A DNA stretch of 63,982 nt, taken from a virus. This document shows, piece after piece, positions 5,394 through 63,982 of this stretch (position 1 is its first letter; each line of letters starts with the position of its first letter). The DNA is taken from positions 1 to 63,982 of the IMG/VR virus record IMGVR_UViG_3300027573_000001, one strand, 5' to 3'. Position numbers and translations under genes: made by a program. The notes below the pieces were generated by a model, which saw nothing but the letters and a program-made list of their open reading frames with translations, was not told the DNA's origin and searched no databases.

Positions 5394-5404
5394 TACAAGT
5401 ATCC

Positions 5405-11076: not shown

Positions 11077-12663
11077 TTATCCAAAGAAGTCATTACCAAA
11101 CTCGTCAATACCAAATCTAAAGGCTTCATCTTCGGCAACTAACTCACAACCTAATGTACAGGATACTAATTGCCCATTTAATATCTGTACTGTTTTGCTT
11201 TCTATGAAGTAATCATGATCCAAACCTTGTGCCGTTACAACAACATGTATTCTATCTGATATCCTACTTCTCATTATAAATAATGCCGCATCAACATTAC
11301 TATTATGCACTGTAAGAGTTAACTGATCTCTGGGTTCTCTGTATCTAGTTGCAATGGCGTTTACAATATCTTGTGCAATATTAGAATTAATCTCAGGCCA
11401 AATATCCACAGCTAAGCTGGAGGCACGATACCTAGCTAAAGAAAGTGCTACATCCACAGTAGACTGAACATGTGGAGTAGTAGTTATTACTAATTCTTGT
11501 GCTCTAAGATAAATACCGTCAGACTCCTGCCCTGATGGTCCCGTTATAACTGCACCAGCAGGGCCTGCTGTTATAGTAATACCTATATGTGTTCCACTAG
11601 TATTACTTAAAAGAACTGCGGTTACAGCACCACTAGAGACTAGGTAATCTACAGTATCTACTGGAGGTATAGCATTCTTAACAGGGTTATTGAGAGATGT
11701 CCATAAGGTCTTAATCTCATCAGCGCCTAATGTTAAGACTTGCCCGTAGTTCCATTTCTGGCCCGCTGGTGTAGTCAATTCTCTAACATTAGTTGTAGCA
11801 GTTACGTTGTTCCAAACCTCATCAGGATTTTGATTGAATACAGTAACAGGATTATGATATATAGGATTTCTAAAAGGGACAGTTACAGGATCAACTATCA
11901 TATCATATAAATACCATTGTACTGTATTAGACCTATAATTATTTATTCTATATTGCCTACCCTGAAAGTGTATCACTACCTGTTCGTCTATAACATCTGC
12001 ATATAAGAATGATCCTGGTCCCTCAGTAATCATTAATTTAGGAAATATATTAATAGGTAACTCATCGTCCATCCAGAAATAGTCTATTATTGCATCACCA
12101 GTATCAAAATCTCTAAAATTTGCTGGTATACCTAATTGATCGCATATAGCATGTAATATTAAATCTACTCTAGTATTCTCCATTAGTGGTAAAGTAACTC
12201 TCTTACTAACAAAGAATTCAAAATGCCCTAGAGAACTAATAGCTACGGATTTTATTGCTGCCAAAGTTTGTGGGGCCTGATCTACATATCCAAAGAATAT
12301 AGTAACAAACTCTGGATCATCTAATGTCCAGTCTTCTCCATCAAGGTCAATAGTATCTATCATATCAACATGTATGTCAGAGTTATGATATAATGCAGCC
12401 GCTGTAGACGGTCCCCTATTTACGAATCCTGCTAACGGACCAGCACCGTTATTATATTTTCCGTCTTGATTATTTAGAACAAACTCCATTGTTTCAACAC
12501 GGGCAGGTGCAGTACTCCTAGCTTGGTCCCTTCCCCACGTTGTTGAAAAAGTACCATTTAATACATCGTTAGTTACTTCCCAATAATCTGAGGTGTCAGC
12601 ATCCGTACCTTCACTCCAGTTTACTACTATTCTCTTTTCTAAAATTCTACTAAGCTCGGTCAT
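11077..12663 (-). CDS. Minor or distal tail protein (putative)
   Basis: Immediately downstream of the tape measure gene with a 4-nt overlap. Confidence 0.55.
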   Translation of the reverse strand: MTELSRILEKRIVVNWSEGTDADTSDYWEVTNDVLNGTFSTTWGRDQARSTAPARVETMEFVLNNQDGKYNNGAGPLAGFVNRGPSTAAALYHNSDIHVDMIDTIDLDGEDWTLDDPEFVTIFFGYVDQAPQTLAAIKSVAISSLGHFEFFVSKRVTLPLMENTRVDLILHAICDQLGIPANFRDFDTGDAIIDYFWMDDELPINIFPKLMITEGPGSFLYADVIDEQVVIHFQGRQYRINNYRSNTVQWYLYDMIVDPVTVPFRNPIYHNPVTVFNQNPDEVWNNVTATTNVRELTTPAGQKWNYGQVLTLGADEIKTLWTSLNNPVKNAIPPVDTVDYLVSSGAVTAVLLSNTSGTHIGITITAGPAGAVITGPSGQESDGIYLRAQELVITTTPHVQSTVDVALSLARYRASSLAVDIWPEINSNIAQDIVNAIATRYREPRDQLTLTVHNSNVDAALFIMRSRISDRIHVVVTAQGLDHDYFIESKTVQILNGQLVSCTLGCELVAEDEAFRFGIDEFGNDFFG

Positions 12664-41168: not shown

Positions 41169-41242
41169 ACTTGTGTATGGTTGGGAACCCCCACGAGAAA
41201 AATTGTAAAATTTGCGATTATCCACTACGGGGGTGATAATTT

Positions 41243-41328
41243 ATTGATACAGTGTATCAATGCACAAATGCGCTCAATCGTTGCACGCATTGCAACTGAG
41301 CATTTGTGCATTGATACACTGTATCAAT
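41243..41328. repeat. Perfect inverted repeat, 29-bp arms (ATTGATACAGTGTATCAATGCACAAATGC), 28-nt spacer holding a further GTTGCA/TGCAAC hairpin
   Basis: Arms 41243-41271 and 41300-41328 are exact reverse complements. Each arm contains a 19-bp near-palindrome. Confidence 0.9.
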
Positions 41329-41344
41329 ACATAATCAAAAGAGA

Positions 41345-41651: not shown

Positions 41652-41715
41652 ACACCCTCCCTTGTAGGAATACAGTAGGAACCTACCCGTATTCCTAAGT
41701 ACATCCCTAGTATAT

Positions 41716-41827
41716 GCACATAATAGATACTACTTACCAACCCATTGACCAAAATTAACTATACATATATCTATACATAAGTATAGATATACTAAAAGGG
41801 ATCGTAGGTAAGTGGTATCTATTATGT
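41716..41827. repeat. Long-range inverted repeat (22-nt arms, 21/22 match) enclosing the palindrome ATATCTATAC-ATAA-GTATAGATAT
   Basis: CACATAATAGATACTACTTACC (41716-41737) versus GGTAAGTGGTATCTATTATGTG (41806-41827). Confidence 0.8.
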
Positions 41828-41876
41828 GTAAATGTTATGAGGAAATGAGGGGTTATACACCCCTCATTCCACGCAC

Positions 41877-45300: not shown

Positions 45301-45663
45301 GATCGTCACTCCTGGTCGGCATACGTGCCGCACTAACCCACTAGCTTTCACTAGTGGGCTAGGTCAGACGTAGTACCATAGCGTGCCGCTCATAACGGCC
45401 ACGCATAAGAGAGTAAAGAGCTAATGAGACGTATTGCTGACTATGTACGCTACCGTCACTTACCCGATTCATCCCTACGTAACTGCCTACACTGTCACCA
45501 ATTCGAGGCGTTCACTTCCGCCGTACCGATGGCCGCTAGCAGTGTTCCGAGTCTACTGTCGTTCGTTCTGTGAACGTAGGGTGTAAGGCTAGACGCCCGC
45601 GCTGCACGGATGTTTTACGCTCGCCCCCTGGTGGGGCTTGCAACCGTGTCACCAGTTTTATGC

Positions 45664-45775
45664 GTTGAGAGTGGAGATTACTCCGCCGTTCTTACTAGTG
45701 GCGTTTCCGTCCTACCAGACCGTTGTACGCTAACGGACCAACGTGTGTCGGTAGACTACTGTCGCCACTCTCAAC
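45664..45775. other. 112-nt closed multi-hairpin element (candidate structured RNA) in the GC-rich non-coding stretch
   Basis: 11-bp perfect closing pair GTTGAGAGTGG (45664-45674) / CCACTCTCAAC (45765-45775) with internal CCGTT..AACGG and CGCC..GGCG hairpins. Confidence 0.35.
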
Positions 45776-46202
45776 TTGTAAATGTGCCCGCCCGTGCTTC
45801 AAGTCACAGTATGCTCCTTTCCTGGTCGGCCTACAATAGATATGTGCGCCCAAAAGCCTCATAACGAGCGCACTATGTATCCTATAATTCAAGTATGCTC
45901 ATAACCCTACGCTTTGTGCAGTCGAACGGCGAGCTAATGATACAGCGTATCAATAAACACTACATGACAATACTGTCAGGCAAATACACTTTACATCGTG
46001 TCATTTTGGCTATTTAGGGATATCGTTTATCTCAATTAGGGTAGTGTCTCCGCATGGTTTGACACGTATTGTCGCTGTACGGGCCTACAAACGCCATTTT
46101 CAGGGTGTACAATTTGAGCTAAACAAGTTTAGTACACTAGATCGGAGTTTTGAGCTAAAATGTAAAGAAATAACTAATAAAACGTTTTACCTCGAATAAC
46201 TA

Positions 46203-46214
46203 GAACATTTGTTC
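46203..46214. promoter_or_regulatory. GAAC-N4-GTTC box (Gram-positive-type LexA/Cheo-box-like), arms extend to TAGAAC/GTTCTA
   Basis: GAACATTTGTTC read directly. Confidence 0.5.
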
Positions 46215-46232
46215 TACGGCGACCGATAGCTA

Positions 46233-46279
46233 GGGATATTTACTCTACAGTAGTTTTATTCTAAGGGTATTTACTATAC
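46233..46279 (+). repeat. Iteron pair GGGATATTTACTCTAC / GGGTATTTACTATAC
   Basis: Read directly; same motif at 46515, 46561, 50074 and 50114. Confidence 0.8.
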
Positions 46280-46324
46280 GCTAGTTTTATTATTCCTTTA
46301 CATTAGCAAATATGTATCACGGAA

Positions 46325-46375
46325 TCTCGGCTGCGCGAGCTACCCTGTGCAAATCGCAAACTTGCGATATGAGAT
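46325..46375 (-). repeat. Dispersed motif copy G (core CCCTGTGCAA 46343-46352) abutting the palindrome ATCGCAAACTTGCGAT (46353-46368)
   Basis: Read directly. Confidence 0.75.
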
Positions 46376-46514
46376 CGCAATAATGCTAATTTTGAGATAA
46401 AACGTTTTATGCCGAAATTTGAGATAAAACCTTTTTGTAGAACATATGTGCTCCGCGGCAAGTGTAGCAAATTTGCACTCTCATATCTAACTTTTAGACT
46501 AGAACATATGTTTG

Positions 46515-55542: not shown

Positions 55543-56589
55543 ATGATTACATCTATTAGCGACATTCAGACGTATTTACGCTGTCGCAGACAGTGGGATT
55601 ACCAGTCTTCAAATAGGCGCAACCTTACTCGCGGCGGTATGAAAGCACCTGAGTTAGAACTAGGCACACTTATCCACGCTGCGTTAGCTGATTGGACACT
55701 TAGACCAGACATTGATCCCGTAAAGCTATTCATGCAGCATAGCGCAAAGCGTCTAAACGAAATTCAGAAGCAGTATCTAGAACTAGTAGGTACAAGTATT
55801 AGTGACGATGAACTATCATCATTCTATGCCTCAATAGATCTAGGCAAGGATATGATAGCTAACTACAAAGAACACTGGAAGACTCCACTACCTAATAACT
55901 TTGAATATGCATTCCCTGAACAAGAGGTTATAGTAGATATTCCTGGCACTGAACATAGATGTAAGTCATGCTTTGATTCAGCATATAAGAATGAAAGCAT
56001 AACAGTTATTTACTCAAATGATGCAGAAATTAAATTCTCTGCTAATAGTGATTGTCCTAAGTGTCATGGTACTGGTGTAGAAAAGCATCAAATCCGTGCT
56101 ATTCTTGATGGCTTGCTAAAGAGTAAGCGTGGTACGTATGTTGTGCTAGAGCGTAAGACATTTGATCCACGCTATGCCCCTACTGAGGAAAGTTTACAGA
56201 CTAACTTTCAGTTTGTAGGGTATACATGGATCGTGCGTGAGTTAGGTATGACACCTGTAGCTGGTGTAGCCTATGATGGACTACGTAAGCAAAAGGCACC
56301 AGGAAAGACAGGTAAAGCAACACGATTGGAAGACTTGTTTATCCGTACAATGGTGCAGTTTACAACTGAGCAACTTGATTTATGGGCAGTAGACCTAGCG
56401 GCTATTGTTAATGAAATGGCTAACAATCCTGTGATTTATCCTCATAGGCCGTGGGATGGATGTCGTCGTTGTTCATTCGATAGCCTGTGCCAGTCACAAT
56501 CACGCGGCGAAGACTTTGAGCACTTGATTCAACTTAACTACGTACAGCGGCCAAACACACGCCCTATTCTTACGGTGGTAAATAACTAA
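55543..56589 (+). CDS. PD-(D/E)XK nuclease, Cas4/RecB-like with C-terminal Cys cluster
   Basis: ISDIQTYLRCRRQW at the N-terminus; ILDGLL..VVLERKT; CRRCSFDSLC at the C-terminus. Confidence 0.7.
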   Translation: MITSISDIQTYLRCRRQWDYQSSNRRNLTRGGMKAPELELGTLIHAALADWTLRPDIDPVKLFMQHSAKRLNEIQKQYLELVGTSISDDELSSFYASIDLGKDMIANYKEHWKTPLPNNFEYAFPEQEVIVDIPGTEHRCKSCFDSAYKNESITVIYSNDAEIKFSANSDCPKCHGTGVEKHQIRAILDGLLKSKRGTYVVLERKTFDPRYAPTEESLQTNFQFVGYTWIVRELGMTPVAGVAYDGLRKQKAPGKTGKATRLEDLFIRTMVQFTTEQLDLWAVDLAAIVNEMANNPVIYPHRPWDGCRRCSFDSLCQSQSRGEDFEHLIQLNYVQRPNTRPILTVVNN

Positions 56590-57176
56590 TGCCTGTTCTG
56601 AGTGATTTTGATTTACTACAACTTGGTGGAAGATTAACTGAACCTTTCATACCTACTAATGTACAGCCTAATAGTATTGATGTGCATTTAGGACAATCGG
56701 TTAAGTACTCAAACATCCCTGTCGATTATGTGTATGATATGCGAAAGGCACATCTTGACGGGATTGATTACACAGAACATGATCTAACTAAAAGTGACTT
56801 AATAATTCCATCAAGACGATTTTGTTTAGGGGTAACTCTAGAAACTATTAAAGTACCACAAGTTTATTATAATTATGCTGGAATCTTCTCTCTTACTGCG
56901 AAGATTGAAGGTAGGTCAGGAGTAGGTAGGACAGGTCTTTGTGTTGTCAATGCAGGTAGAGTAGACACAGGATGGGAAGGTAAGCTAACATTAGAACTAT
57001 ACAACTCGGAGCAGTTTCCTATTGTGTTATTCTATGGTATGCCGATCGCACAAGTAGTATATGAGACTACAGTATCTCCAGTAGGCATACCCTATGGTGC
57101 ACCAGCATTGCACAGTAAGTATCAAGGTGATACTAAAGCTGAACCATCAAAGATGTGGAAGAATTATGCTGATTGA
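56589..57176 (+). CDS. dcd: dCTP deaminase / dUTPase-superfamily protein
   Basis: NSIDVHLG; GRSGVGRTGL..NAGRVDTGWEGKLTLELYN; MPIAQVVY. Confidence 0.8.
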   Translation: MPVLSDFDLLQLGGRLTEPFIPTNVQPNSIDVHLGQSVKYSNIPVDYVYDMRKAHLDGIDYTEHDLTKSDLIIPSRRFCLGVTLETIKVPQVYYNYAGIFSLTAKIEGRSGVGRTGLCVVNAGRVDTGWEGKLTLELYNSEQFPIVLFYGMPIAQVVYETTVSPVGIPYGAPALHSKYQGDTKAEPSKMWKNYAD

Positions 57177-57354
57177 ACTTAGTATAATATACATACTATG
57201 TGCTGTGTCTATCTGTATATCACTCTACTTGTGGTACAAAGTAGGAGAACTAACAGAGGGAAGTAGTCATAATGCATGGACAGTAGAATATAGACTAAAT
57301 AACCTACTAAAGCGAATAGAGAAGTTAGAAGCTGCACAGAAGATAGAAGAGTAA
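57166..57354 (+). CDS. Small single-TM protein
   Basis: MLIELSIIYILCAVSICISLYLWY then a coiled tail; start moved to the internal ATG. Confidence 0.45.
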   Translation: MLIELSIIYILCAVSICISLYLWYKVGELTEGSSHNAWTVEYRLNNLLKRIEKLEAAQKIEE

Positions 57355-57402
57355 ACACTATGGGCGTGGACCGAACGGTTTGACGGTGATTGTCTTATAA
57401 AC

Positions 57403-57476
57403 GGGGCGGAAGCATAACTGGTATATGCAGGCGTCTTATAAGCGCCAGATAGTGCGTTCAAGTCGCACCCGCCCTA
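57403..57476 (+). tRNA. tRNA-Ile (anticodon UAU), tentative
   Basis: Hand fold: acceptor GGGGCGG/CCGCCCT (G1-U72), D stem GCAT/ATGC, anticodon stem GGCGT/GCGCC with loop CTTATAA, T arm GTGCG-TTCAAGT-CGCAC. A at position 8 is atypical. Confidence 0.55.
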
Positions 57477-57478
57477 CC

Positions 57479-57568
57479 GAGTAGAAAGATGACTAATACC
57501 GTGAGGATTAGTGGTGAGTAGTTAGCTATTCGGACTAGCTAATTATCCTATGCAGCATCTTTCTACTC
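57479..57568 (+). ncRNA. Closed structured element 1 (13-bp closing stem, two inner hairpins, GUGA tetraloop)
   Basis: GAGTAGAAAGATG (57479-57491) pairs perfectly with CATCTTTCTACTC (57556-57568). Inner hairpins ACTAAT.CC[GTGA]GG.ATTAGT and TAGTTAGCTA..TAGCTAATTA. Confidence 0.5.
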
Positions 57569-57570
57569 AT

Positions 57571-57654
57571 GCCCGCATGGCGGAATTGGCAGACGCAACT
57601 GATTTAAAATCAGTCGCCAGTAATGGCATCAGGGTTCGAGTCCCTGTGTGGGCA
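57571..57654 (+). tRNA. tRNA-Leu (anticodon UAA), long variable arm
   Basis: Acceptor GCCCGCA/TGTGGGC, anticodon arm ACTGA-TTTAAAA-TCAGT, T arm CAGGG-TTCGAGT-CCCTG. Confidence 0.85.
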
Positions 57655-57656
57655 CC

Positions 57657-57749
57657 GAGTTAGAGATGCTACTAATCGTGAGGTTAGTAGGAAGTTAAGT
57701 AGTATCGTGCCCATCAGTATTACTTAGTTTCTGCCCACATCTCTAACTC
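57657..57749 (+). ncRNA. Closed structured element 2 (paralog of element 1)
   Basis: GAGTTAGAGATG (57657-57668) pairs perfectly with CATCTCTAACTC (57738-57749). Inner hairpin CTACTAATC[GTGA]GGTTAGTAG. Confidence 0.5.
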
Positions 57750-57777
57750 TACTAATTGCGCGGAGGAAGGTTAGGTA

Positions 57778-58089
57778 TTGATTGCTTTAATTATCGGCAC
57801 AGCTATGCTTTGGTGTCAAGAAGCAAGAGTAACTGGATATGTCAGGACGGAGTTTAGCTCATATACTTATGACGGTACACACATCATGACGGATGAACCT
57901 ATTGTAGCTGCCTCGTGGAATATCCCTATTGATTCATATGTATGGATAGAAGGGCTAGGGACATATAGAGTAGCAGATAGGGGTCATCTAGGATCGTCTG
58001 GATGGATTGACATTCCAGTATGGTCTAGACAAGAGGCATACTCTTTGACTGGTTATCGTACAATTTGTATACATCCAAGTGGACAGTAA
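57778..58089 (+). CDS. 3D-domain (MltA/RlpA-like double-psi barrel) protein
   Basis: TTG start after GGAGGAAGG; IVAASWNIPIDSYVWIEGLGTYRVADRGHLGSSGWIDIPVWS. Confidence 0.6.
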   Translation: MIALIIGTAMLWCQEARVTGYVRTEFSSYTYDGTHIMTDEPIVAASWNIPIDSYVWIEGLGTYRVADRGHLGSSGWIDIPVWSRQEAYSLTGYRTICIHPSGQ

Positions 58090-58091
58090 TT

Positions 58092-58421
58092 ATGGATAAA
58101 ATATGGGGGCTACCTATAGTAATAGTAGATAATGGTTCGATACCTAACGATGTTATTATAGTCTCTAACCAAGAGTTACACATTCCGCACGCAAATGAGG
58201 TACGTACTATGAAGCGCACTGTACAGATTGATGTAACGACGAGCATTCCTGTTGAGGTGGCACAAGAAGCATTGGCTAGTCGAGCACTTGAACTATTGAA
58301 GCGTGAGATTGAAATGGCTACTCGTAAGGCTATTCGTGAGTTCATTGCTAATGGTATCAGTGCTAGCCTTGAAGACTTAGCAATTAAGGCCGAGAAGAAG
58401 ACGGTGAAGTATAGTGGATAA
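58092..58421 (+). CDS. Hypothetical protein
   Basis: ORF track; ATG just after the upstream stop. Confidence 0.5.
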   Translation: MDKIWGLPIVIVDNGSIPNDVIIVSNQELHIPHANEVRTMKRTVQIDVTTSIPVEVAQEALASRALELLKREIEMATRKAIREFIANGISASLEDLAIKAEKKTVKYSG

Positions 58422-58508
58422 ATGGATGGCTGCTATGTGTATGTATATCCTAGTAATTGCGGCAACACTAGCGGGACTAATCTTGCTACTAACAACTGGA
58501 GGTAATTA

Positions 58509-59363
58509 GTGGTACAGAGTGTAGTTGACGATACGGCTTCTTACGATATTCCAGAGACATTCGGTGGAGTACCTATTCGTCCCATTGCTAATATTAGTAC
58601 TAGTATGGGTACGTTCATGGCTTTGTATGGGGGAGGGGGAGTAGGTAAAACAGCAACTATTGGTAAGGTAGCTCATAGTCACGGACCGCTATTGTACGTT
58701 GATGCTGAGGGTGGAGGTAAGTCTATTACACATATTCCAGGAATTCATATCGCCGAGGTTACTACATGGAGAGAGATAGCTAATATAACTCGTGACTTGA
58801 AAGGAAAAGCAGGTAAGTACCCCTTCAAGACTATATGTTTCGATAATTTATCGGAGATACAGTCTCTATGCTTAAATGATATTGTCCCAGTAGGTAGCGC
58901 AGTACAAATTCAGCATTACGGCGAAGCTACAGCTAGAATGCTAAAACTTACTAGGGACTTACGAGAAGTAGCACGTACACAGGGGGTGCATGTATTTCTT
59001 ATTGCATGGGATAGTCCAGAAATGAGTGAAGGTGGAGTAGTCACAAAGCGTGGAGTAGGATTCACTCCATCACTCGCACGGCAGTTTCCAGGGATTGTAA
59101 CCTATGTCGGTTATTTACAAGCCGTTGATGGGTACCCGACTATACGCAGACTTAGCTTCACTGTTAGTAGCAAAACCGATGCCAAGTTCCGTGTATCACC
59201 TAGTGAAGCTGTTGCGGAAATACCGCTTGAATTATGGATTCGTCAGGAAGATAACATACTTGGTGATATTATCGAGACAGAAGCAAAAGGAAAGAAGTTC
59301 CCTGCCAACAAGTACGGTAAACCCAACGAGACTGAGCGTGAGAAAGAGCGAGTGCGTATCTAG
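58509..59363 (+). CDS. P-loop ATPase (AAA_24/Sak4-like recombination ATPase, putative)
   Basis: GTG start after GGAGG; ALYGGGGVGKTAT Walker A; ICFDNLSE Walker B-like. Confidence 0.65.
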   Translation: MVQSVVDDTASYDIPETFGGVPIRPIANISTSMGTFMALYGGGGVGKTATIGKVAHSHGPLLYVDAEGGGKSITHIPGIHIAEVTTWREIANITRDLKGKAGKYPFKTICFDNLSEIQSLCLNDIVPVGSAVQIQHYGEATARMLKLTRDLREVARTQGVHVFLIAWDSPEMSEGGVVTKRGVGFTPSLARQFPGIVTYVGYLQAVDGYPTIRRLSFTVSSKTDAKFRVSPSEAVAEIPLELWIRQEDNILGDIIETEAKGKKFPANKYGKPNETEREKERVRI

Positions 59364-59458
59364 TACACGTACTCATACTAACCTACATACATTCTGGTAC
59401 AGGAGTAGAGCACCGCCCATAAACAGAACAAGTTAATCCAGTCCACACCCCCAACATC

Positions 59459-59522
59459 TAAACACTACCTACTAAGTCACATAGTTTAAGACGCGAACGG
59501 TCCGCTTAGTAGGTAGTGTTTA
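59459..59522. repeat. Perfect 18-bp inverted repeat TAAACACTACCTACTAAG / CTTAGTAGGTAGTGTTTA, 28-nt spacer
   Basis: Read directly. Confidence 0.9.
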
Positions 59523-59526
59523 TTCA

Positions 59527-59566
59527 GCATAAACCTACAAATGTAGGCATAAACCTACAAATGTAG
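59527..59566. promoter_or_regulatory. Two tandem 20-bp units, each with the palindrome CCTACAAATGTAGG (operator-like)
   Basis: GCATAAACCTACAAATGTAG x2, 45 nt upstream of the GTG at 59612. Confidence 0.6.
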
Positions 59567-59611
59567 GTACAAGCCTCCTCCCGTTAATCGGGCAAGAAAG
59601 AGGAAACTTCC

Positions 59612-60004
59612 GTGCCAATTATTGACTTTAGTGGTGTGCAAGAGCTTGAAGCTCTTCCCGAAGATACGTACCCCTGCATCATTGCTGATATCAGCCGTGA
59701 GACTGCAAAGGAAGCGGGAAAGTACGACTACTACAAGGTAAAGTTCACGGTCAGCGATGATACCTCCGACGTTAATGGGCGCTCAGTGTACCGTAACTAC
59801 AGCCTTAGCCCTAAGTCGCTGTGGGCACTTAAGCAGTTCATGGTTATTGCTGGTACTGACCCTGAGAAGTTCAGTGGTGAAGTGGACACAGACGAAGAGA
59901 TGCTTGAGCTTAAGGGTGCAGAGGTAGACGTTACTGTATCCGTTAAGACCTATAACGATAAGCTCGTTAATGAGGTCACAAAGGTAGCGCCTCCAGGTAT
60001 CTAA
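59612..60004 (+). CDS. DUF669-like protein (putative ssDNA-binding partner of the Sak4-like ATPase)
   Basis: N-terminal IIDFSGVQELEALPEDTYPCIIADI resembles DUF669; adjacency to the AAA_24-like gene. Confidence 0.45.
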   Translation: MPIIDFSGVQELEALPEDTYPCIIADISRETAKEAGKYDYYKVKFTVSDDTSDVNGRSVYRNYSLSPKSLWALKQFMVIAGTDPEKFSGEVDTDEEMLELKGAEVDVTVSVKTYNDKLVNEVTKVAPPGI

Positions 60005-60101
60005 GAGTACACCACTAGTATTAGGTGGTCAAGTCAGCGGTAAAGAGTATGTGTACGGAGGCTGACTGGCATATACATACTTACCACTTTAGGAGAACAT
60101 A

Positions 60102-60290
60102 ATGCGTAAGACTATTGCAGCGTTTGTTTTCGCACTCACCTTAATGGTGACTACTACTAGTGCTACTTTTGCTGCTCCGTCGCCACCGACGAATGGTGGT
60201 AACGGTGCTGGTTCTAGTGGTAATTGTACTGGTCCTGCCAGTGAGCGTCCGACTTCCTGTCAGTCGCCAGGTGGTGTATCAGGTCGCTAA
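60102..60290 (+). CDS. Secreted small peptide precursor (signal peptide plus 37-aa Pro/Gly/Ser-rich, 2-Cys peptide)
   Basis: AGGAG SD; MRKTIAAFVFALTLMVTTTSATFA|AP... Confidence 0.55.
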   Translation: MRKTIAAFVFALTLMVTTTSATFAAPSPPTNGGNGAGSSGNCTGPASERPTSCQSPGGVSGR

Positions 60291-60479
60291 CTAAAAATAC
60301 TGGCGCCGTAGGGTACTTGGAAGGTAACAACCAAGCTAGTATTTGTGTAGTAGTACATCTCCAAACGCAGTTGGTCAAGCGAACAACGTAAAAGCGTGCG
60401 TTGCCCATTTGGGGCATAGGAACCACTACCACGCTACTGTGTAGACTACTACCCTACATTTATTATACGGAGAATAATT

Positions 60480-60683
60480 ATGACTGAGGAAGATTTTCAG
60501 ACGAAATATCATACTTACTCAACATATAATTATGAGAATGCGAAAGCCGAAGCAGAATCAATTACTCTTAGCGATGGAAGGCATCCTGAGGTAATAGGCT
60601 TTCCATTTGGACAAAATATCCAATATTGCTTAGTTCTACCTAGAGCAGCAAAATATATTAGTAGTCTGTATCTAGCTAGTTAG
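60480..60683 (+). CDS. Hypothetical protein
   Basis: GGAG SD; ORF track. Confidence 0.5.
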   Translation: MTEEDFQTKYHTYSTYNYENAKAEAESITLSDGRHPEVIGFPFGQNIQYCLVLPRAAKYISSLYLAS

Positions 60684-60688
60684 CGCAT

Positions 60689-60765
60689 AGGACCGTTAGC
60701 TCAATCGGCAGAGCACATGGTTTACATCCATGAGGTTCCGCGTTCGAGTCGCGGACGGTCCACCA
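60689..60765 (+). tRNA. tRNA-Val (anticodon UAC), CCA encoded
   Basis: Acceptor GGACCGT/ACGGTCC, anticodon arm CATGG-TTTACAT-CCATG, T arm CCGCG-TTCGAGT-CGCGG. Confidence 0.85.
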
Positions 60766-60854
60766 GAGAGGTTTAGTAACCCTACTGTGATGGACGCATC
60801 CTCCTTAAGATACTCATATAGTGGACTGTATACAGTTCGGCGAACAACTCTCTG
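60764..60854 (+). ncRNA. Closed structured element 3a (starts inside the CCA of tRNA-Val)
   Basis: CAGAGAG (60764-60770) pairs with CTCTCTG (60848-60854), plus 2 more pairs past a bulge. Inner ACTGTATACAGT hairpin. Confidence 0.35.
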
Positions 60855-60857
60855 AAT

Positions 60858-60951
60858 GTAGAGTACGCAGCATAGCTGTGGACCGTAGGGGAAGGTACCC
60901 CCACTCAATAGGTACAACGGAATCTGTGAGAGAGACACAGACGTACTCTAC
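60858..60951 (+). ncRNA. Closed structured element 3b
   Basis: GTAGAGTACG (60858-60867) pairs with CGTACTCTAC (60942-60951). Inner GGGG..CCCC and TCTGTG-AGAGAGA-CACAGA hairpins. Confidence 0.4.
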
Positions 60952-60954
60952 TCT

Positions 60955-61012
60955 TTATAATATCTTTTATCTTAGAATTCGCTTTGCACAGGGCCTAGCT
61001 CGCGCAGCGTAA
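60955..61012 (+). repeat. Dispersed motif copy E (core TTGCACAGGG 60984-60993; CGCGCAGCG 61001-61009)
   Basis: Read directly; upstream of ATG 61041. Confidence 0.85.
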
Positions 61013-61040
61013 TTCGTAGTACTACCAAAAGGATAGCGTA

Positions 61041-61322
61041 ATGCCAATAGAAATCACTAAAATAGATATTCAGCCAGAAACTTTCTACGACGAAGAGACA
61101 GATGAAACCTTTGAATTGCCTGCACGTATTGCTCTAAGTGGAGAGTGTGACGTACATAAAGTAGGGGCTTATGTACCTATTAATGCCTCATGGGCATACG
61201 ACGATCCCAAAACTATGAAATTACTGACCAATCGCCTGCTATATTATATGAGACAAGAAGGCTGTACTTGTGTAGATAATCATCCAGATTATGTACCGCC
61301 AGTAGTCGACGCTGAACGCTGA
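61041..61322 (+). CDS. Hypothetical acidic protein
   Basis: AAAGGA SD; ORF track. Confidence 0.5.
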   Translation: MPIEITKIDIQPETFYDEETDETFELPARIALSGECDVHKVGAYVPINASWAYDDPKTMKLLTNRLLYYMRQEGCTCVDNHPDYVPPVVDAER

Positions 61323-61339
61323 ACGTCAGGGGCGCGATT

Positions 61340-61612
61340 ATGAGTAACTATCTCAACCAAAATGTATTACGAATAGCATCACATAAAGGAAGACAAAAAA
61401 GCTCACTAGCTGATATATACAAACAGAAGTACCGTAACTTAAACGGGCGGCGAAAGAAGCCTAGTAAGCTACCTAAGAGCAAAGAACGAGAAATATTCTA
61501 CACCGAAACAGAATACAATAATATACCAAAGACTTCTAATGCACTACCGAAAAGACATATCGACGAAACCTTTGAGGAATACTACAACAGAATACGAAGT
61601 GGAATTGTATGA
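61340..61612 (+). CDS. Hypothetical basic protein
   Basis: AGGGG SD; ORF track. Confidence 0.5.
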   Translation: MSNYLNQNVLRIASHKGRQKSSLADIYKQKYRNLNGRRKKPSKLPKSKEREIFYTETEYNNIPKTSNALPKRHIDETFEEYYNRIRSGIV

Positions 61613-61634
61613 GTTAGGGGCGTAATCGGATAAC

Positions 61635-63982
61635 ATGAAGTTAGCCGAATTTCTGGAAGAAGTAGTAACTGGTGGAGAGGGCTGGTTTAACCTTTGCCAC
61701 GCGAAAGCTAATGGTACAGGATGGAAAGAAGAGTGGTTCAGATACCCTAATCAGCTTAACGATATATGTAGTAGAATAGGCCAGCTAAAAGCAGAAAATG
61801 TATACTTCTCACCGTACTTGTTTGAGACGAAACAAAGTACAAAAGAGGCTGCGATTGTCGGTCGGACTATAGTCGCCGATCTAGACGATGCTAATGTATT
61901 AACTATTCAACCACGACCTAGTATACTTGTGCAAACAAGTGCTGGAAGGCATCAAGCATATTGGATACTAACTGATGCTCTTTCTCGTAATGCTCATGAA
62001 CACCTTAGCAAGCGCATCACTTATGGTATTCCTGCTTGTGACCGTACAGGATGGTTTATCGGCAAAAGGGTTCGCGTTCCTGGAACTAACAATTATAAGT
62101 GGGATCGTGACAGTGATATCGTTAGAGTGCTTCCTTCAACACATAAACAACATACAGCGGCAGACTTCCAACACTTACCAGAAATCCCTACACGATCAAC
62201 TAATTCAAATGAAGAGGCTGGAGACGCAGATAATTTTATTAGAGACGCGCTTACAGTCAGTAGCGGCCCTCAGGAATTCTTAGAGAAAGTACGCAGCAAG
62301 TTACCACCTAAAGTAGTTACACAGTATAACTTTGAGGCAAGGGACCGTAGTGCTGCACTGTGGACACTGAATATAGCAGCTTTCCGTGCAGGACTAAGTT
62401 CTAAGGAAGTATTCTTCTTAGCACGAGGTAGTGCTAATAATAAGTTCACCAGTCTCCGATTCAACGGCGATGTTGAATTGATGAAGGATGTTCTGCGTGC
62501 ACAACAACAAGTGTACAGCGAGCATATGTCTGGTGATTACAGAGAAAAGATTAAAGAGATTAGGCGGTTTCCAGGATTGGGACACGAGAAGCTAGCTTAC
62601 CTTGCACAAACAGTTAGAGAGAACATGAAAGCTCGCGGACAGTTCATCAACTGTGCCGATGGTACTTCATGGTTCATAGACAATGTACTTGGTAAGCCTA
62701 TGGCGGTTCTAGCTCGCTCAGAAGCTCTACAAACAACACTGGATGCATGGTATGGACTCAATCCTATTGAACGCGAATCAGCATACACTATTGGTCACTT
62801 ATCGTCCTACGTAGCTGGTCTGCCTCCTGTGGGTAGACTCGCTGCGCTATCCTACTATGACATGGACACGAATGCACTGTACCTGCATACTGGACGCAAG
62901 GAAGTTCTCAGGGTTACTTCACGAGACATTACTACAGTTACAAATGGCTATGACAGCTTAGTATTCCATTGGGCATCTTTAAATGAAACAATTAATCCTC
63001 ACTACAAGCACTATGACACTAAATGGGAGGATATTCTCTTCGAGAACGCTTTAGACAATATGATAGGATTGAAGATAAGTGAAGCTAAAGCGTTGCTCAA
63101 AGTGTGGATGCTTATGCTGTTGCTCAGAAGCTCTGTCGTCACGCGTCCTATACTCTGTATCTTTGGTCAACCTGGTGCTGGAAAAAGTACTTTATTCAGG
63201 CGTGTATATACTCTTCTTTATGGGAGGGGTCGCAGCCTTTCTAGTATTACTACTCCTGATAACTTTGATTACGCAACGGCTTCTGATCCTTTGGTAGTAT
63301 TTGATAATGTTGATACATGGGAACGGTGGCTACCTGATAGACTTGCCCTCGCTGCGGCGGTTAGCGAAGTCAAGAAGCGAAAACTGTATACTAACAATGA
63401 CACAATTACTCTTACTAGACAAGCATTCATCGGTCTTACAGCCCACAACCCAAAATTTGGGAGAGAGGATGTTACGGACAGACTTATTATCCTCACTCTC
63501 GAACGACTCAAAAAGTTCGACAGCGAGACAGATATTCTAGGGTATATACATAGCAATCGTAGCACCATTTGGGGACTAATTATTCAAGACATCCAGAAAA
63601 TCTTAAGTACGGAAGTACCTGTTAGTGGATTCACAGACTTTCGTATTCAAGACTTTGCTCGTTACGGAGCTTGGATAGCAAAAGCAGTAGGTATATTAGA
63701 CGAGTTTAACTCGGCACTTGCTACCATAGTTTCGGAACAGAAGACATTTGCTATGGAGGAAGATGGCTTATTACTTGATGCACTGTATAAGTACTTAACT
63801 ATTAAGCACAACTCGAATGAGGAACAAGTATTCCGCCCGCCGAGTAATTGGTGGGCATTACTAGAGCCCCACTCTAGGGATATGCAGGCATTCCAGAGAC
63901 AGTACAAGAATGCTGTAGTTCTAGGAAAGAAGTTCTGGACGCTCCATGATGCAATGAAAGGAATGTTCTTTGTAGATTGGGA
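61635..63982 (+). CDS. Primase-helicase: RepB'-like primase/prim-pol N-terminal domain plus VirE/D5-like P-loop helicase (runs off the window end and continues at 1..257)
   Basis: Manual translation: VYFSPYLF, VADLDD, SAGRHQAYW, RVPGTNNYK. Walker A IFGQPGAGKST; Walker B PLVVFDNVD. No in-frame stop to 63982. Confidence 0.8.
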   Translation, partial: MKLAEFLEEVVTGGEGWFNLCHAKANGTGWKEEWFRYPNQLNDICSRIGQLKAENVYFSPYLFETKQSTKEAAIVGRTIVADLDDANVLTIQPRPSILVQTSAGRHQAYWILTDALSRNAHEHLSKRITYGIPACDRTGWFIGKRVRVPGTNNYKWDRDSDIVRVLPSTHKQHTAADFQHLPEIPTRSTNSNEEAGDADNFIRDALTVSSGPQEFLEKVRSKLPPKVVTQYNFEARDRSAALWTLNIAAFRAGLSSKEVFFLARGSANNKFTSLRFNGDVELMKDVLRAQQQVYSEHMSGDYREKIKEIRRFPGLGHEKLAYLAQTVRENMKARGQFINCADGTSWFIDNVLGKPMAVLARSEALQTTLDAWYGLNPIERESAYTIGHLSSYVAGLPPVGRLAALSYYDMDTNALYLHTGRKEVLRVTSRDITTVTNGYDSLVFHWASLNETINPHYKHYDTKWEDILFENALDNMIGLKISEAKALLKVWMLMLLLRSSVVTRPILCIFGQPGAGKSTLFRRVYTLLYGRGRSLSSITTPDNFDYATASDPLVVFDNVDTWERWLPDRLALAAAVSEVKKRKLYTNNDTITLTRQAFIGLTAHNPKFGREDVTDRLIILTLERLKKFDSETDILGYIHSNRSTIWGLIIQDIQKILSTEVPVSGFTDFRIQDFARYGAWIAKAVGILDEFNSALATIVSEQKTFAMEEDGLLLDALYKYLTIKHNSNEEQVFRPPSNWWALLEPHSRDMQAFQRQYKNAVVLGKKFWTLHDAMKGMFFVDW
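63856..63982. repeat. Terminal direct repeat (copy of 1-127)
   Basis: Identical sequence. Confidence 0.95.

Follow-up and report, generated by a model that had tools for sequence, protein, structure and literature searches.

Tandem closed elements after a phage tRNA-Val gene and a candidate class of self-closed RNA modules in tRNA-cluster spacers

The viral genome in IMG/VR record IMGVR_UViG_3300027573_000001, here called the window (63,982 nucleotides (nt), the whole stretch that was analyzed), carries two predicted closed RNA elements, B1 and B2, in tandem directly after its tRNA-Val gene. In each of them the first and last bases pair with each other. In the window and related contigs, closed elements of this kind start at tRNA 3' ends far more often than at random positions, and we conclude that a class of phage tRNA-cluster RNA modules is real and apparently undescribed, with none of its members in Rfam. 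For the interval after tRNA-Val itself, B2 is a credible orphan member of this class and B1 may be a decayed module or only a remnant. The interpretation that we tentatively prefer, while placing it slightly short of probable, is that B2, and less certainly B1, are the most eroded local members of a lineage-specific set of self-closed branched RNA modules that tile the spacers of tRNA clusters and would serve as processing punctuation.

The trailer of tRNA-Val and its neighbors are arranged as follows:

60690-60765, plus strand: tRNA-Val(UAC) with encoded CCA, predicted by ARAGORN (Rfam tRNA model, 67.8 bits)
60764-60854, plus strand: B1, 91 nt, weakly closed by 7 base pairs (bp), CAGAGAG/CTCTCTG
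60855-60857, plus strand: linker AAU, 3 nt, single-stranded, between B1 and B2
60858-60951, plus strand: B2, 94 nt, closed multi-branch structure with a perfect 10-bp closure, GUAGAGUACG/CGUACUCUAC
60953-61005, plus strand: dispersed promoter-like or regulatory motif CTTWATAATATCTTTTATCTTA...TTTGCACAGGG, 53 nt, copy 4 of 4 in repeat family D4

Both closing helices described in the initial annotation are present. CAGAGAG at 60764-60770 pairs with CTCTCTG at 60848-60854 to close B1, which begins inside the CCA of tRNA-Val as had been proposed, with C60764 and A60765 being at once the last two bases of the tRNA and the first two of the closure. Three nucleotides further on, past the AAU linker, GTAGAGTACG at 60858-60867 pairs perfectly with CGTACTCTAC at 60942-60951 to close B2. 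Folding reproduces the internal hairpins that had been quoted for both elements, and gives UAGUA/UACUG, GAUG/CAUC and GGACUGU/ACAGUUC for B1, and CAGC/GCUG, CCGU[GGGG/CCCC]ACGG and UCUGUG/CACAGA for B2. The distance to the downstream motif was overestimated: B2 ends 1 nt, rather than 3 nt, before this motif when it is delimited as 60953-61005. The unusual feature of the trailer is its tiling, in which tRNA end, B1, AAU, B2, one base and the dispersed motif follow one another, and the closures of both elements start or end within 3 nt of the neighboring units.

The proposal that these structures exceed chance holds modestly for B2 and fails for B1, as B2 combines a helix of 10 bp or more with a fold better than those of shuffled sequences while B1 has neither. 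B2 folds at -31.9 kcal/mol (z=-3.14, with 1 of 200 shuffles as good), its closing pairs have probabilities of at least 0.9, and its closure contains the class signature GAGUAC...GUACUC. By our estimate, a spacer of 190 nt would contain a perfect 10-bp closure by chance with p~0.01. Genome-wide, 17 perfect closures of at least 10 bp spanning 50-185 nt were observed against ~10 expected, so the stem of B2 alone is not exceptional; those with GAGT...ACTC ends are limited to B2 and two elements near tRNA-Ile and tRNA-Leu (A1 and A2, below), all in tRNA trailers. The closure of B1 has a probability of 0.75 with the C and A of the tRNA included and 0.13 without them. Its termini, GAGAG...CUCUC, agree with a GAG(U)...(A)CUC end pattern, and an unpaired stretch of ~21 nt holds the C-rich CCUCCUUA (60800-60807).

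Relatives of the window were reached via homologs of two of its proteins, an AAA_24 ATPase and a single-stranded DNA-binding (SSB)-like protein, which led to syntenic contigs in one JGI assembly and in Logan assemblies. The window and these relatives agree in gene order and in having two tRNA clusters, but differ in tRNA content. The contigs most used below are listed with the identity of the protein by which each was found (AAA_24, or the SSB-like protein for L038):

L001: 71% identity, 39 kb
L002-L005: 54% identity
L006 and L007: 74% identity
L008-L013: 79% identity
L038: 89% identity (SSB-like protein)

Of 19 non-redundant tRNA 3' ends, counted over the window and the related contigs together, 10 have a closure of >=10 bp that begins no more than 3 nt to either side, compared with 1.6% of random positions (binomial p=7e-14). 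The elements of the relatives are Y-shaped or more branched, 60-174 nt in length, and have fold z-scores of -4.4 to -8.2, with -2.9 for the 174-nt element in L001. The plus strand is the more stable one in 16 of 20 elements, by >4 kcal/mol in 13 as against 2 in the opposite direction, and G-U pairs are about twice as many on the plus strand, which argues for RNA of the tRNA sense rather than DNA hairpins. Termini of the form GAG(U)/(A)CUC occur in 11 of 15 elements, including those in second position that do not touch a tRNA, and the linkers between units measure 0-3 nt (AU from A1 to tRNA-Leu, GAU in L009, AAU between B1 and B2). The suggestion of a functional class of closed elements linked to tRNA 3' ends is thus upheld as a conserved architecture, and not for B1, which stays at chance level. 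In this lineage the tRNA genes mostly encode NCC followed by G instead of the full CCA, and at most tRNAs the position of the terminal A is taken by the first G of the module.

Structural conservation in related genomes, the absence of which had been named as a refutation, is found at the tRNA-Val site itself. In L009, two closed elements in tandem stand after a tRNA-Val that is 95% identical to that of the window; they have closures of 13-14 and 15 bp, fold with z=-5.9 each and have GAU between them. The sequence of this trailer cannot be aligned with B1 or B2, though A1 is nearly identical between the two genomes. L001 has a single 174-nt closed element after tRNA-Val, followed by tRNA-Glu, and in L006 and L007 tRNA-Val has been lost while two tandem closed elements are kept at the site. 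Taken together, these comparisons indicate that the architecture is conserved there and that the sequence has been replaced rather than merely drifted. L001 also has a closed element 5' of its tRNA-Val (11553-11632), with a 13-bp closure (GAAUAAGCUACGG/CCGUAGCUUAUUC) ending 3 nt before the tRNA and a core, GGGUCGGAGU..GGGUUAUCU, that is conserved in the NCBI contig L050 (~683-765); closed modules therefore occur as tRNA 5' leaders too.

One family, which we call A-type, comprises A1 and A2 in the window and copies in L009, L038, L007, L006 and L001. Its locus in the window reads:

57403-57478, plus strand: tRNA-Ile (ARAGORN)
57479-57568, plus strand: A1, fills the spacer between tRNA-Ile and tRNA-Leu; Y-shaped, 13-bp closure, GNRA (GUGA) hairpin and second hairpin
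57571-57656, plus strand: tRNA-Leu (ARAGORN)
57657-57749, plus strand: A2, Y-shaped, directly after tRNA-Leu and 28 nt upstream of the start codon of the next gene

A-type elements have a 12-14-bp closure (GAGUAG...), onto which a hairpin capped by a C-GURA-G tetraloop stacks directly, together with a second hairpin that varies and a 3' junction of 6-9 nt; closure and stacked GNRA hairpin always add up to 21-22 bp. The hairpin, CUAAUACC-GURA-GGAUUAG, is conserved across genomes, and the junction strands have no conserved core. A1 (z=-4.5) and A2 (z=-6.9) match our A-type covariance model (CM), R1, at 74.7 and 60.6 bits, and the ortholog of A2 in L038 has a compensatory A-U to C-G change. An alignment of six copies has pairing in 197 of its 199 cells and double changes at 21 of 38 pairs; it was fitted to the structure, which makes the counts for the second hairpin generous, and four of the double changes fall in the closure, whose two strands are clearly homologous. 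MAFFT failed to align the elements structurally, and N-padded alignments made by hand were used; RNAalifold on the raw alignment recovered just one hairpin. CM R1 scores 75 bits on the plus strand and 27 on the minus strand, and when built without the L001 copy recovers that copy at E=6e-6. On this comparative evidence, we take the A-type elements to form a true family. Scans of 185,579 bacterial and archaeal genomes and of IMG/VR found none of their sequences. The hairpin pattern alone matched once in an IMG/VR coding region and once in a Verrucomicrobiota metagenome-assembled genome, both dismissed as chance hits, and a longer pattern gave zero matches in an exact-pattern scan.

The four elements of the window had been regarded as a single size-matched class. 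This view does not stand: CM R1 has no match in 60764-60951 at E<=10, the interval contains no CGTRAGG hairpin, B1 and B2 are not homologous to A1 and A2 and differ from them in topology, and element sizes vary over 60-174 nt in the relatives. A second family, defined in this analysis and named 'CUGAUA', has five members (two in L009 and one each in L001, L007 and L002), built from a closure, a short hairpin with a C-rich loop, an ACUGAUA-YAUAC motif and a long second hairpin. An nhmmer profile of the five finds no match in B1 or B2 at E<=100, and the corresponding CM R2, a weak model that also misses held-out L009 members, matches only the closure of B2 (2.9 bits). Two short cores are shared nevertheless at the level of 8-mers: CCCUACUG, which follows the UAGUA/UACUG hairpin in B1, is also found in the after-Leu element of L001, and CCCCCACU, which follows GGGG/CCCC in B2, is common to CUGAUA cores. 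Both fit an eroded membership of B1 and B2 in this family and do not prove it.

For the preferred reading, we infer the following course of events. The modules would be co-transcribed on the plus strand with the tRNAs and the flanking replication genes in one polycistronic RNA, in which each module is closed by its own ends, as a rule a 5' GAG(U)... paired with a 3' ...(A)CUC. Its terminal helix would then abut the NCC(A) of the tRNA 3' end on one side and the next unit, be it a module, tRNA, promoter or ribosome-binding site, on the other. Helix bases would act as punctuation at which an endonuclease, possibly RNase P, or else RNase Z, E or III, cuts the junctions. Such a cut could free the tRNA 3' end for trimming or, where NCC-OH is left, for addition of the terminal A, and the closed fold would insulate tRNA folding from the spacer sequence. 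The module itself may be released as an exonuclease-resistant small RNA (sRNA) with both ends sealed in a helix, and hence be stable.

In the valU and lysT operons of Escherichia coli, processing starts with the removal by RNase P of a stem-loop immediately downstream of the final tRNA (Agrawal, Mohanty & Kushner 2014; PMC4176162). There, as here, a stable helix lies a few nt after the tRNA 3' end, and the system may by analogy serve as a mechanistic template for a cut at the 5' helix base. The E. coli hairpins are simple Rho-independent terminators, whereas the elements of our lineage are branched, 60-174 nt long, without U-tracts, often internal to the cluster and in tandem. The closest parallel in layout is bacteriophage T4, where tRNA-Arg, 1 nt, rnaD (119 nt), 6 nt and rnaC (139 nt) follow each other on one strand. 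The T4 rnaC and rnaD products are stable RNAs of unknown role (PMC3014915). In T4 (rnaD being species 2 and rnaC species 1) as in the window, the last tRNA is followed on the same strand by two tandem units of ~100 nt, noncoding RNAs in T4 and putative ones in the window, with a few nt between them. T4 rnaC folds with z=-4.6, and searches with CM R1 and R2 that included the T4 locus gave no match. The T4 RNAs keep tRNA-like pieces, with rnaC retaining a T-arm (GGGUUCGAAUCCCGG) and rnaD ending in CACCA; the elements here have none and are instead sealed by long terminal helices starting from the CC(A) of the tRNA.

Release of RNAs by coupling to tRNA processing is known from the E. coli 3' external transcribed spacer (3'ETS) of leuZ, which acts as a sponge, from MALAT1/mascRNA and from the gammaherpesvirus tRNA-miRNA TMERs. 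As would be the case here by analogy, a non-tRNA RNA is co-transcribed in them with a tRNA or tRNA-like unit and released by tRNA processing, in other organisms and with other folds. Intergenic RNase III sites of T7 and the surrogate stem-loops of mitochondrial 'tRNA punctuation' are structures at the boundaries of polycistronic units that define cuts and leave stabilizing helices, and they share with our elements the position exactly at the boundaries of functional units. The T7 sites differ in being single irregular hairpins of about two helical turns, compared with 21-22 bp in the A-type family and only 10+4 bp in B2. Phage tRNA clusters are usually annotated as tRNAs and junk spacer, while the spacers here are built from self-sealed branched RNA modules. 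If these act as processing punctuation, they would represent a way for phages to organize operons that mix tRNA and mRNA; should they be released as stable small RNAs, the unexplained T4 RNA C/D phenomenon would extend to a distant lineage and become testable with two defined families.

Several observations weigh against the preferred reading, in part for B1 and B2 and in part for the role of the class. B1 folds at -20.1 kcal/mol with z=-0.31 against shuffles, and because closures of at least 7 bp (with at most two G-U pairs) begin within 3 nt of 35% of random positions, its stem carries no weight; apart from its exact placement between the tRNA end and B2, B1 is indistinguishable from chance. 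The whole Val trailer (60766-60952) has z=-0.35. Unlike most elements of the relatives, neither B1 nor B2 shows a preference for the plus strand, the minus strand being the more stable one for both (-21.7 against -20.1 kcal/mol for B1, -37.2 against -31.9 for B2). No homologs of either were detected with CM R1, CM R2 or nhmmer. The initial annotation had all elements tied to tRNA 3' ends; the two kept in L006 and L007 without tRNA-Val contradict this, and tRNAs that lie directly before an open reading frame (ORF), or with a 5-16-nt spacer, have no module, which implies that modules are not required for tRNA maturation. Lastly, the GNRA hairpin of the A-type family and the C-rich loops of other elements suggest sequence-specific roles beyond passive punctuation.

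This last point is the basis of an alternative that we regard as unlikely, in which tRNA transcripts carry the modules as small regulatory RNAs and tRNA processing sets them free to act in trans. Their C-rich loops (CUCCC/CCUCC, and CCUCCUUA in B1) would pair with G-rich Shine-Dalgarno regions and modulate translation of host or phage, and the GNRA hairpin of the A-type family would bind a protein or an RNA receptor. C-rich pentamers amount to 10 per kb in the elements compared with 1-2 per kb in the background (a 5-9-fold enrichment in non-A elements), lie mostly in predicted loops and occur in 10 of 12 non-A elements. The 8-mer of B1, which we take to be identical to the 3' end of 16S rRNA, is unpaired. 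Conservation of the A-type hairpin across genomes and persistence of elements without a tRNA in L006 and L007 would be expected of such regulators, the tRNA-spacer-derived 3'ETS of leuZ provides a precedent, and C-rich-loop sRNAs are known in Firmicutes (RsaE/RoxS and the UCCC-motif sRNAs of Staphylococcus aureus). The resemblance to RsaE/RoxS lies in unpaired C-rich loop motifs that could pair with Shine-Dalgarno sequences; the elements here have no Rfam matches and differ in being closed by their 5' and 3' ends. What speaks against a trans-acting role is that AAGGAGG sites in the window number three, not above chance, that no target could be identified, that the A-type elements have no C-rich motifs, and that the C-run of B2 is paired with its GGGG. 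Wholesale replacement of the trailer next to a 95% identical tRNA-Val would also be unusual for a regulator with fixed targets.

Many of the figures for B1 would be expected if B1, and perhaps B2, were decaying or neutral leftovers, either former modules or debris of the tRNA cluster, with a coincidental closure in B1. The z-scores of B1 and the whole trailer, the frequency of 7-bp closures at random positions and the missing strand bias and homologs of both elements all agree with this explanation, as does the resemblance of CCCUACUG and CCCCCACU to the CUGAUA core, such as eroded copies might retain. Clear decay of clusters is seen elsewhere, in a tRNA-Leu remnant of L038 and a tRNA 3' remnant of L007 (below). 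The explanation is harder to reconcile with the perfect 10-bp GAGUAC closure of B2, its z-score and its exact tiling between B1 and the promoter-like motif, or with the two very strong closed elements that occupy the same place in L009. Moreover, a compact phage genome should in time lose 190 nt of dead spacer, and the distant relatives L042, L043 and L049 are nearly spacer-free. We consider this explanation improbable.

A more far-reaching proposal, which we hold to be distinctly unlikely, joins processing and regulation: an undescribed class of 'tRNA-riding' small RNAs, with at least two families and the orphans B1 and B2, whose GAGU/ACUC helices are recognized by a tRNA-processing endonuclease, so that tRNA maturation and sRNA biogenesis are coupled and the released RNAs act in trans, for example as anti-Shine-Dalgarno decoys, to reprogram translation in infection. 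If true, this would also offer, for the first time, a functional explanation of T4 RNA C and RNA D, which have been a puzzle for 50 years.

The replacement of sequence at a conserved site could alternatively be the work of selfish or modular DNA cassettes, similar to miniature inverted-repeat transposable elements (MITEs), that carry GAGTA...TACTC inverted repeats and recombine at tRNA 3' ends, with the RNA fold as a by-product. Otherwise unrelated elements do have this inverted-repeat end sequence in common, A2 is absent in L009 and A1 in L001, L007 and L038, members of one family stand after different tRNAs in different genomes, and the Val trailers of the window and L009 are unalignable despite the likeness of their tRNA-Val genes and A1. 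This origin is nonetheless very doubtful: target-site duplications and clean empty sites are not visible, no genome has a near-identical multicopy family, a transposase was not seen, and the A-type sequences were absent from the genome collections scanned. The excess of G-U pairs and stability on the plus RNA strand would not be selected in a DNA element, and compensatory changes within the stems likewise speak against it. Most remote of all, degenerate tRNAs or tRNA-like structures, or DNA hairpins serving as replication origin or priming signals, could be brought to mind by the Glu and Gln tRNAs after tRNA-Val in L001, the acceptor-stem length (7 bp) of the B1 closure, the truncated tRNA-Leu of L038 turned into a 10-bp-closed element and the location in a replication gene module, and are opposed by the absence of tRNA or other Rfam matches (E<=10, 451 nt), ARAGORN hits and T-loop motifs, and by the strand bias and G-U pairs of the class, which indicate RNA over DNA.

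Identity searches on B1 and B2 gave the following results. No match at gathering score was found in Rfam 15, which includes the self-cleaving ribozymes (hammerhead, twister, pistol, hatchet and HDV-like), and a cmscan of 451 nt against 4227 families at E<=10 with lax filters returned nothing in 60766-60951, tRNA model included. ARAGORN, with or without introns, reported the three true tRNAs only and none in B1 or B2. A Rho-independent terminator was rejected, since 56500-62000 has no terminator-like site on the plus strand and the B2 helix encloses 74 nt. A protein-coding origin was rejected as well, the overlapping ORFs of 63, 80 and 41 amino acids having no PHROG match and the trailer not being conserved in L009. 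A MITE or terminal inverted repeat element was considered for the inverted repeats, and dismissed because B1, B2, A1 and A2 have no target-site duplication, B1 and B2 have no repeat copies, and L009, which lacks A2, shows no clean excision at that site.

The 53-nt motif downstream of B2 has copies at 5404, 38427, 39316 and 60953 and is conserved in L006 (~2763) and L009 (~2899). It consists of CTTAATAATATCTTTTATCTTAAAA..TTTGCACAGGG followed by a small GC hairpin and is always located upstream of plus-strand genes; a conserved -35 element is not present at its copies. It is likely a phage-specific promoter or leader. A sigma70-like GAGACA-18-TATAAT was also found at 60932-60961. The possibility of a closed element before each copy of the motif was rejected, as the other copies have no preceding element.

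Turnover of tRNA genes in this lineage is rapid, as seen from remnants in two relatives. In L038 (1241-1301), the 3' part of an old long-arm tRNA-Leu has been re-closed by a 10-bp stem and adjoins a newly acquired 76-nt tRNA-Leu, and in L007 (~716-745) a bare T-arm/acceptor 3' end (GTTCGAATCGTCACATCGGCACC) lies immediately 5' of an A-type element. Several tRNA-Leu(UAA) genes of relatives (L001, L038) measure 75-76 nt and lack the long variable arm that is usual in this tRNA. With introns allowed, ARAGORN predicts a tRNA-Lys(CUU) in L002 (11872-12017) with a 70-nt insertion in the anticodon loop that folds into a closed structure; a group I intron would be very much longer, and the gene is either an interrupted pseudo-tRNA or something new. 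L001 has tRNAs for Ile, Leu and Asn in one cluster and for Val, Glu, Gln, Lys and Met in the other. The position of A1 between tRNA-Ile and tRNA-Leu is taken by small ORFs in L007 (297-488, a Cys-rich protein of 63 amino acids) and L038 (1053-1160, ~35 amino acids), and HNH genes lie nearby in L002 and L042. The inter-tRNA spacer behaves in this respect as a cassette hot-spot, by analogy with segB in the T4 tRNA cluster.

Bases 1-127 of the window recur at 63856-63982, indicating a complete circular or terminally redundant genome of ~63.9 kb. Its genes encode an HK97-type capsid protein, a portal protein and a large terminase, PolA fused to a UDG domain, a UvrD-like helicase, SNF2 and ThyX, and further a PD-(D/E)XK nuclease, a dCTP deaminase, the AAA_24 ATPase and the SSB-like protein; a phage RNA polymerase was not found among them. 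The trailer lies within the replication gene module, between the SSB-like gene and a gene for 825 amino acids (61635-63982, continuing into 128-257) that was called on the identical contigs L045 and L046, has no family assigned, and corresponds in place to a Pfam-less gene of similar size in L001. This gene runs across the window end and is therefore missing from the ORF list, so the short ORFs listed in 61.7-63.9 kb are spurious. The possibility that the 825-amino-acid ORF is a phage RNA polymerase with the dispersed motif as its promoter was rejected, the ORF being PolA with a UDG domain. A protein of 93 amino acids encoded downstream of the trailer has no homologs beyond L045 and L046, which are both 100% identical to the window and add no diversity.

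Nothing close to the window was found in IMG/VR, JGI or GTDB. Its PolA is <30% identical to that of any GenBank phage, with no close isolate, and DNA matches by megablast and blastn against 50,697 phage records were limited to tRNAs. Scans of IMG/VR and JGI with neighboring proteins or their alignment gave nothing, or relatives at 25-33% identity, and the 3' half of tRNA-Val had zero matches in an exact-pattern scan. Distant relatives (L042, L043 and L049) are compact, with almost no intergenic space and no comparable spacers, tRNAs not having been scanned for in them.

Other structured elements were noted in the window. Very long inverted repeats with arms of up to 38 nt (41234-41337, 41712-41833, 45657-45782, 46159-46304 and 46366-46487) cluster in the gene-poor region at 41-47 kb, of which the 42-46 kb part is richer in G+C. 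The element at 45664-45775 starts with GUUGAGAGUGG, resembling the A-type closure GAGAGUGGG of L001, and has no CM R1 match and no strand preference. A perfect 18-19-bp hairpin (TAAACACTACCTACTAAG...) at 59459-59522 lies between the AAA_24 and SSB-like genes, with a similarly placed long hairpin in L001 (10947-11024); the Rfam match of the former to mir-374 is spurious. Just after the SSB-like gene, a structured element at 60024-60087 is conserved in L009 (2348-2411), where three compensatory pair changes distinguish its hairpin (AGUAUACGUG/CAUGUAUACU) from that of the window (AGUAUGUGUA/UAUACAUACU). GUCAGC at 60033-60038 can pair with GCUGAC in the hairpin loop (60061-60066), which suggests a pseudoknot.

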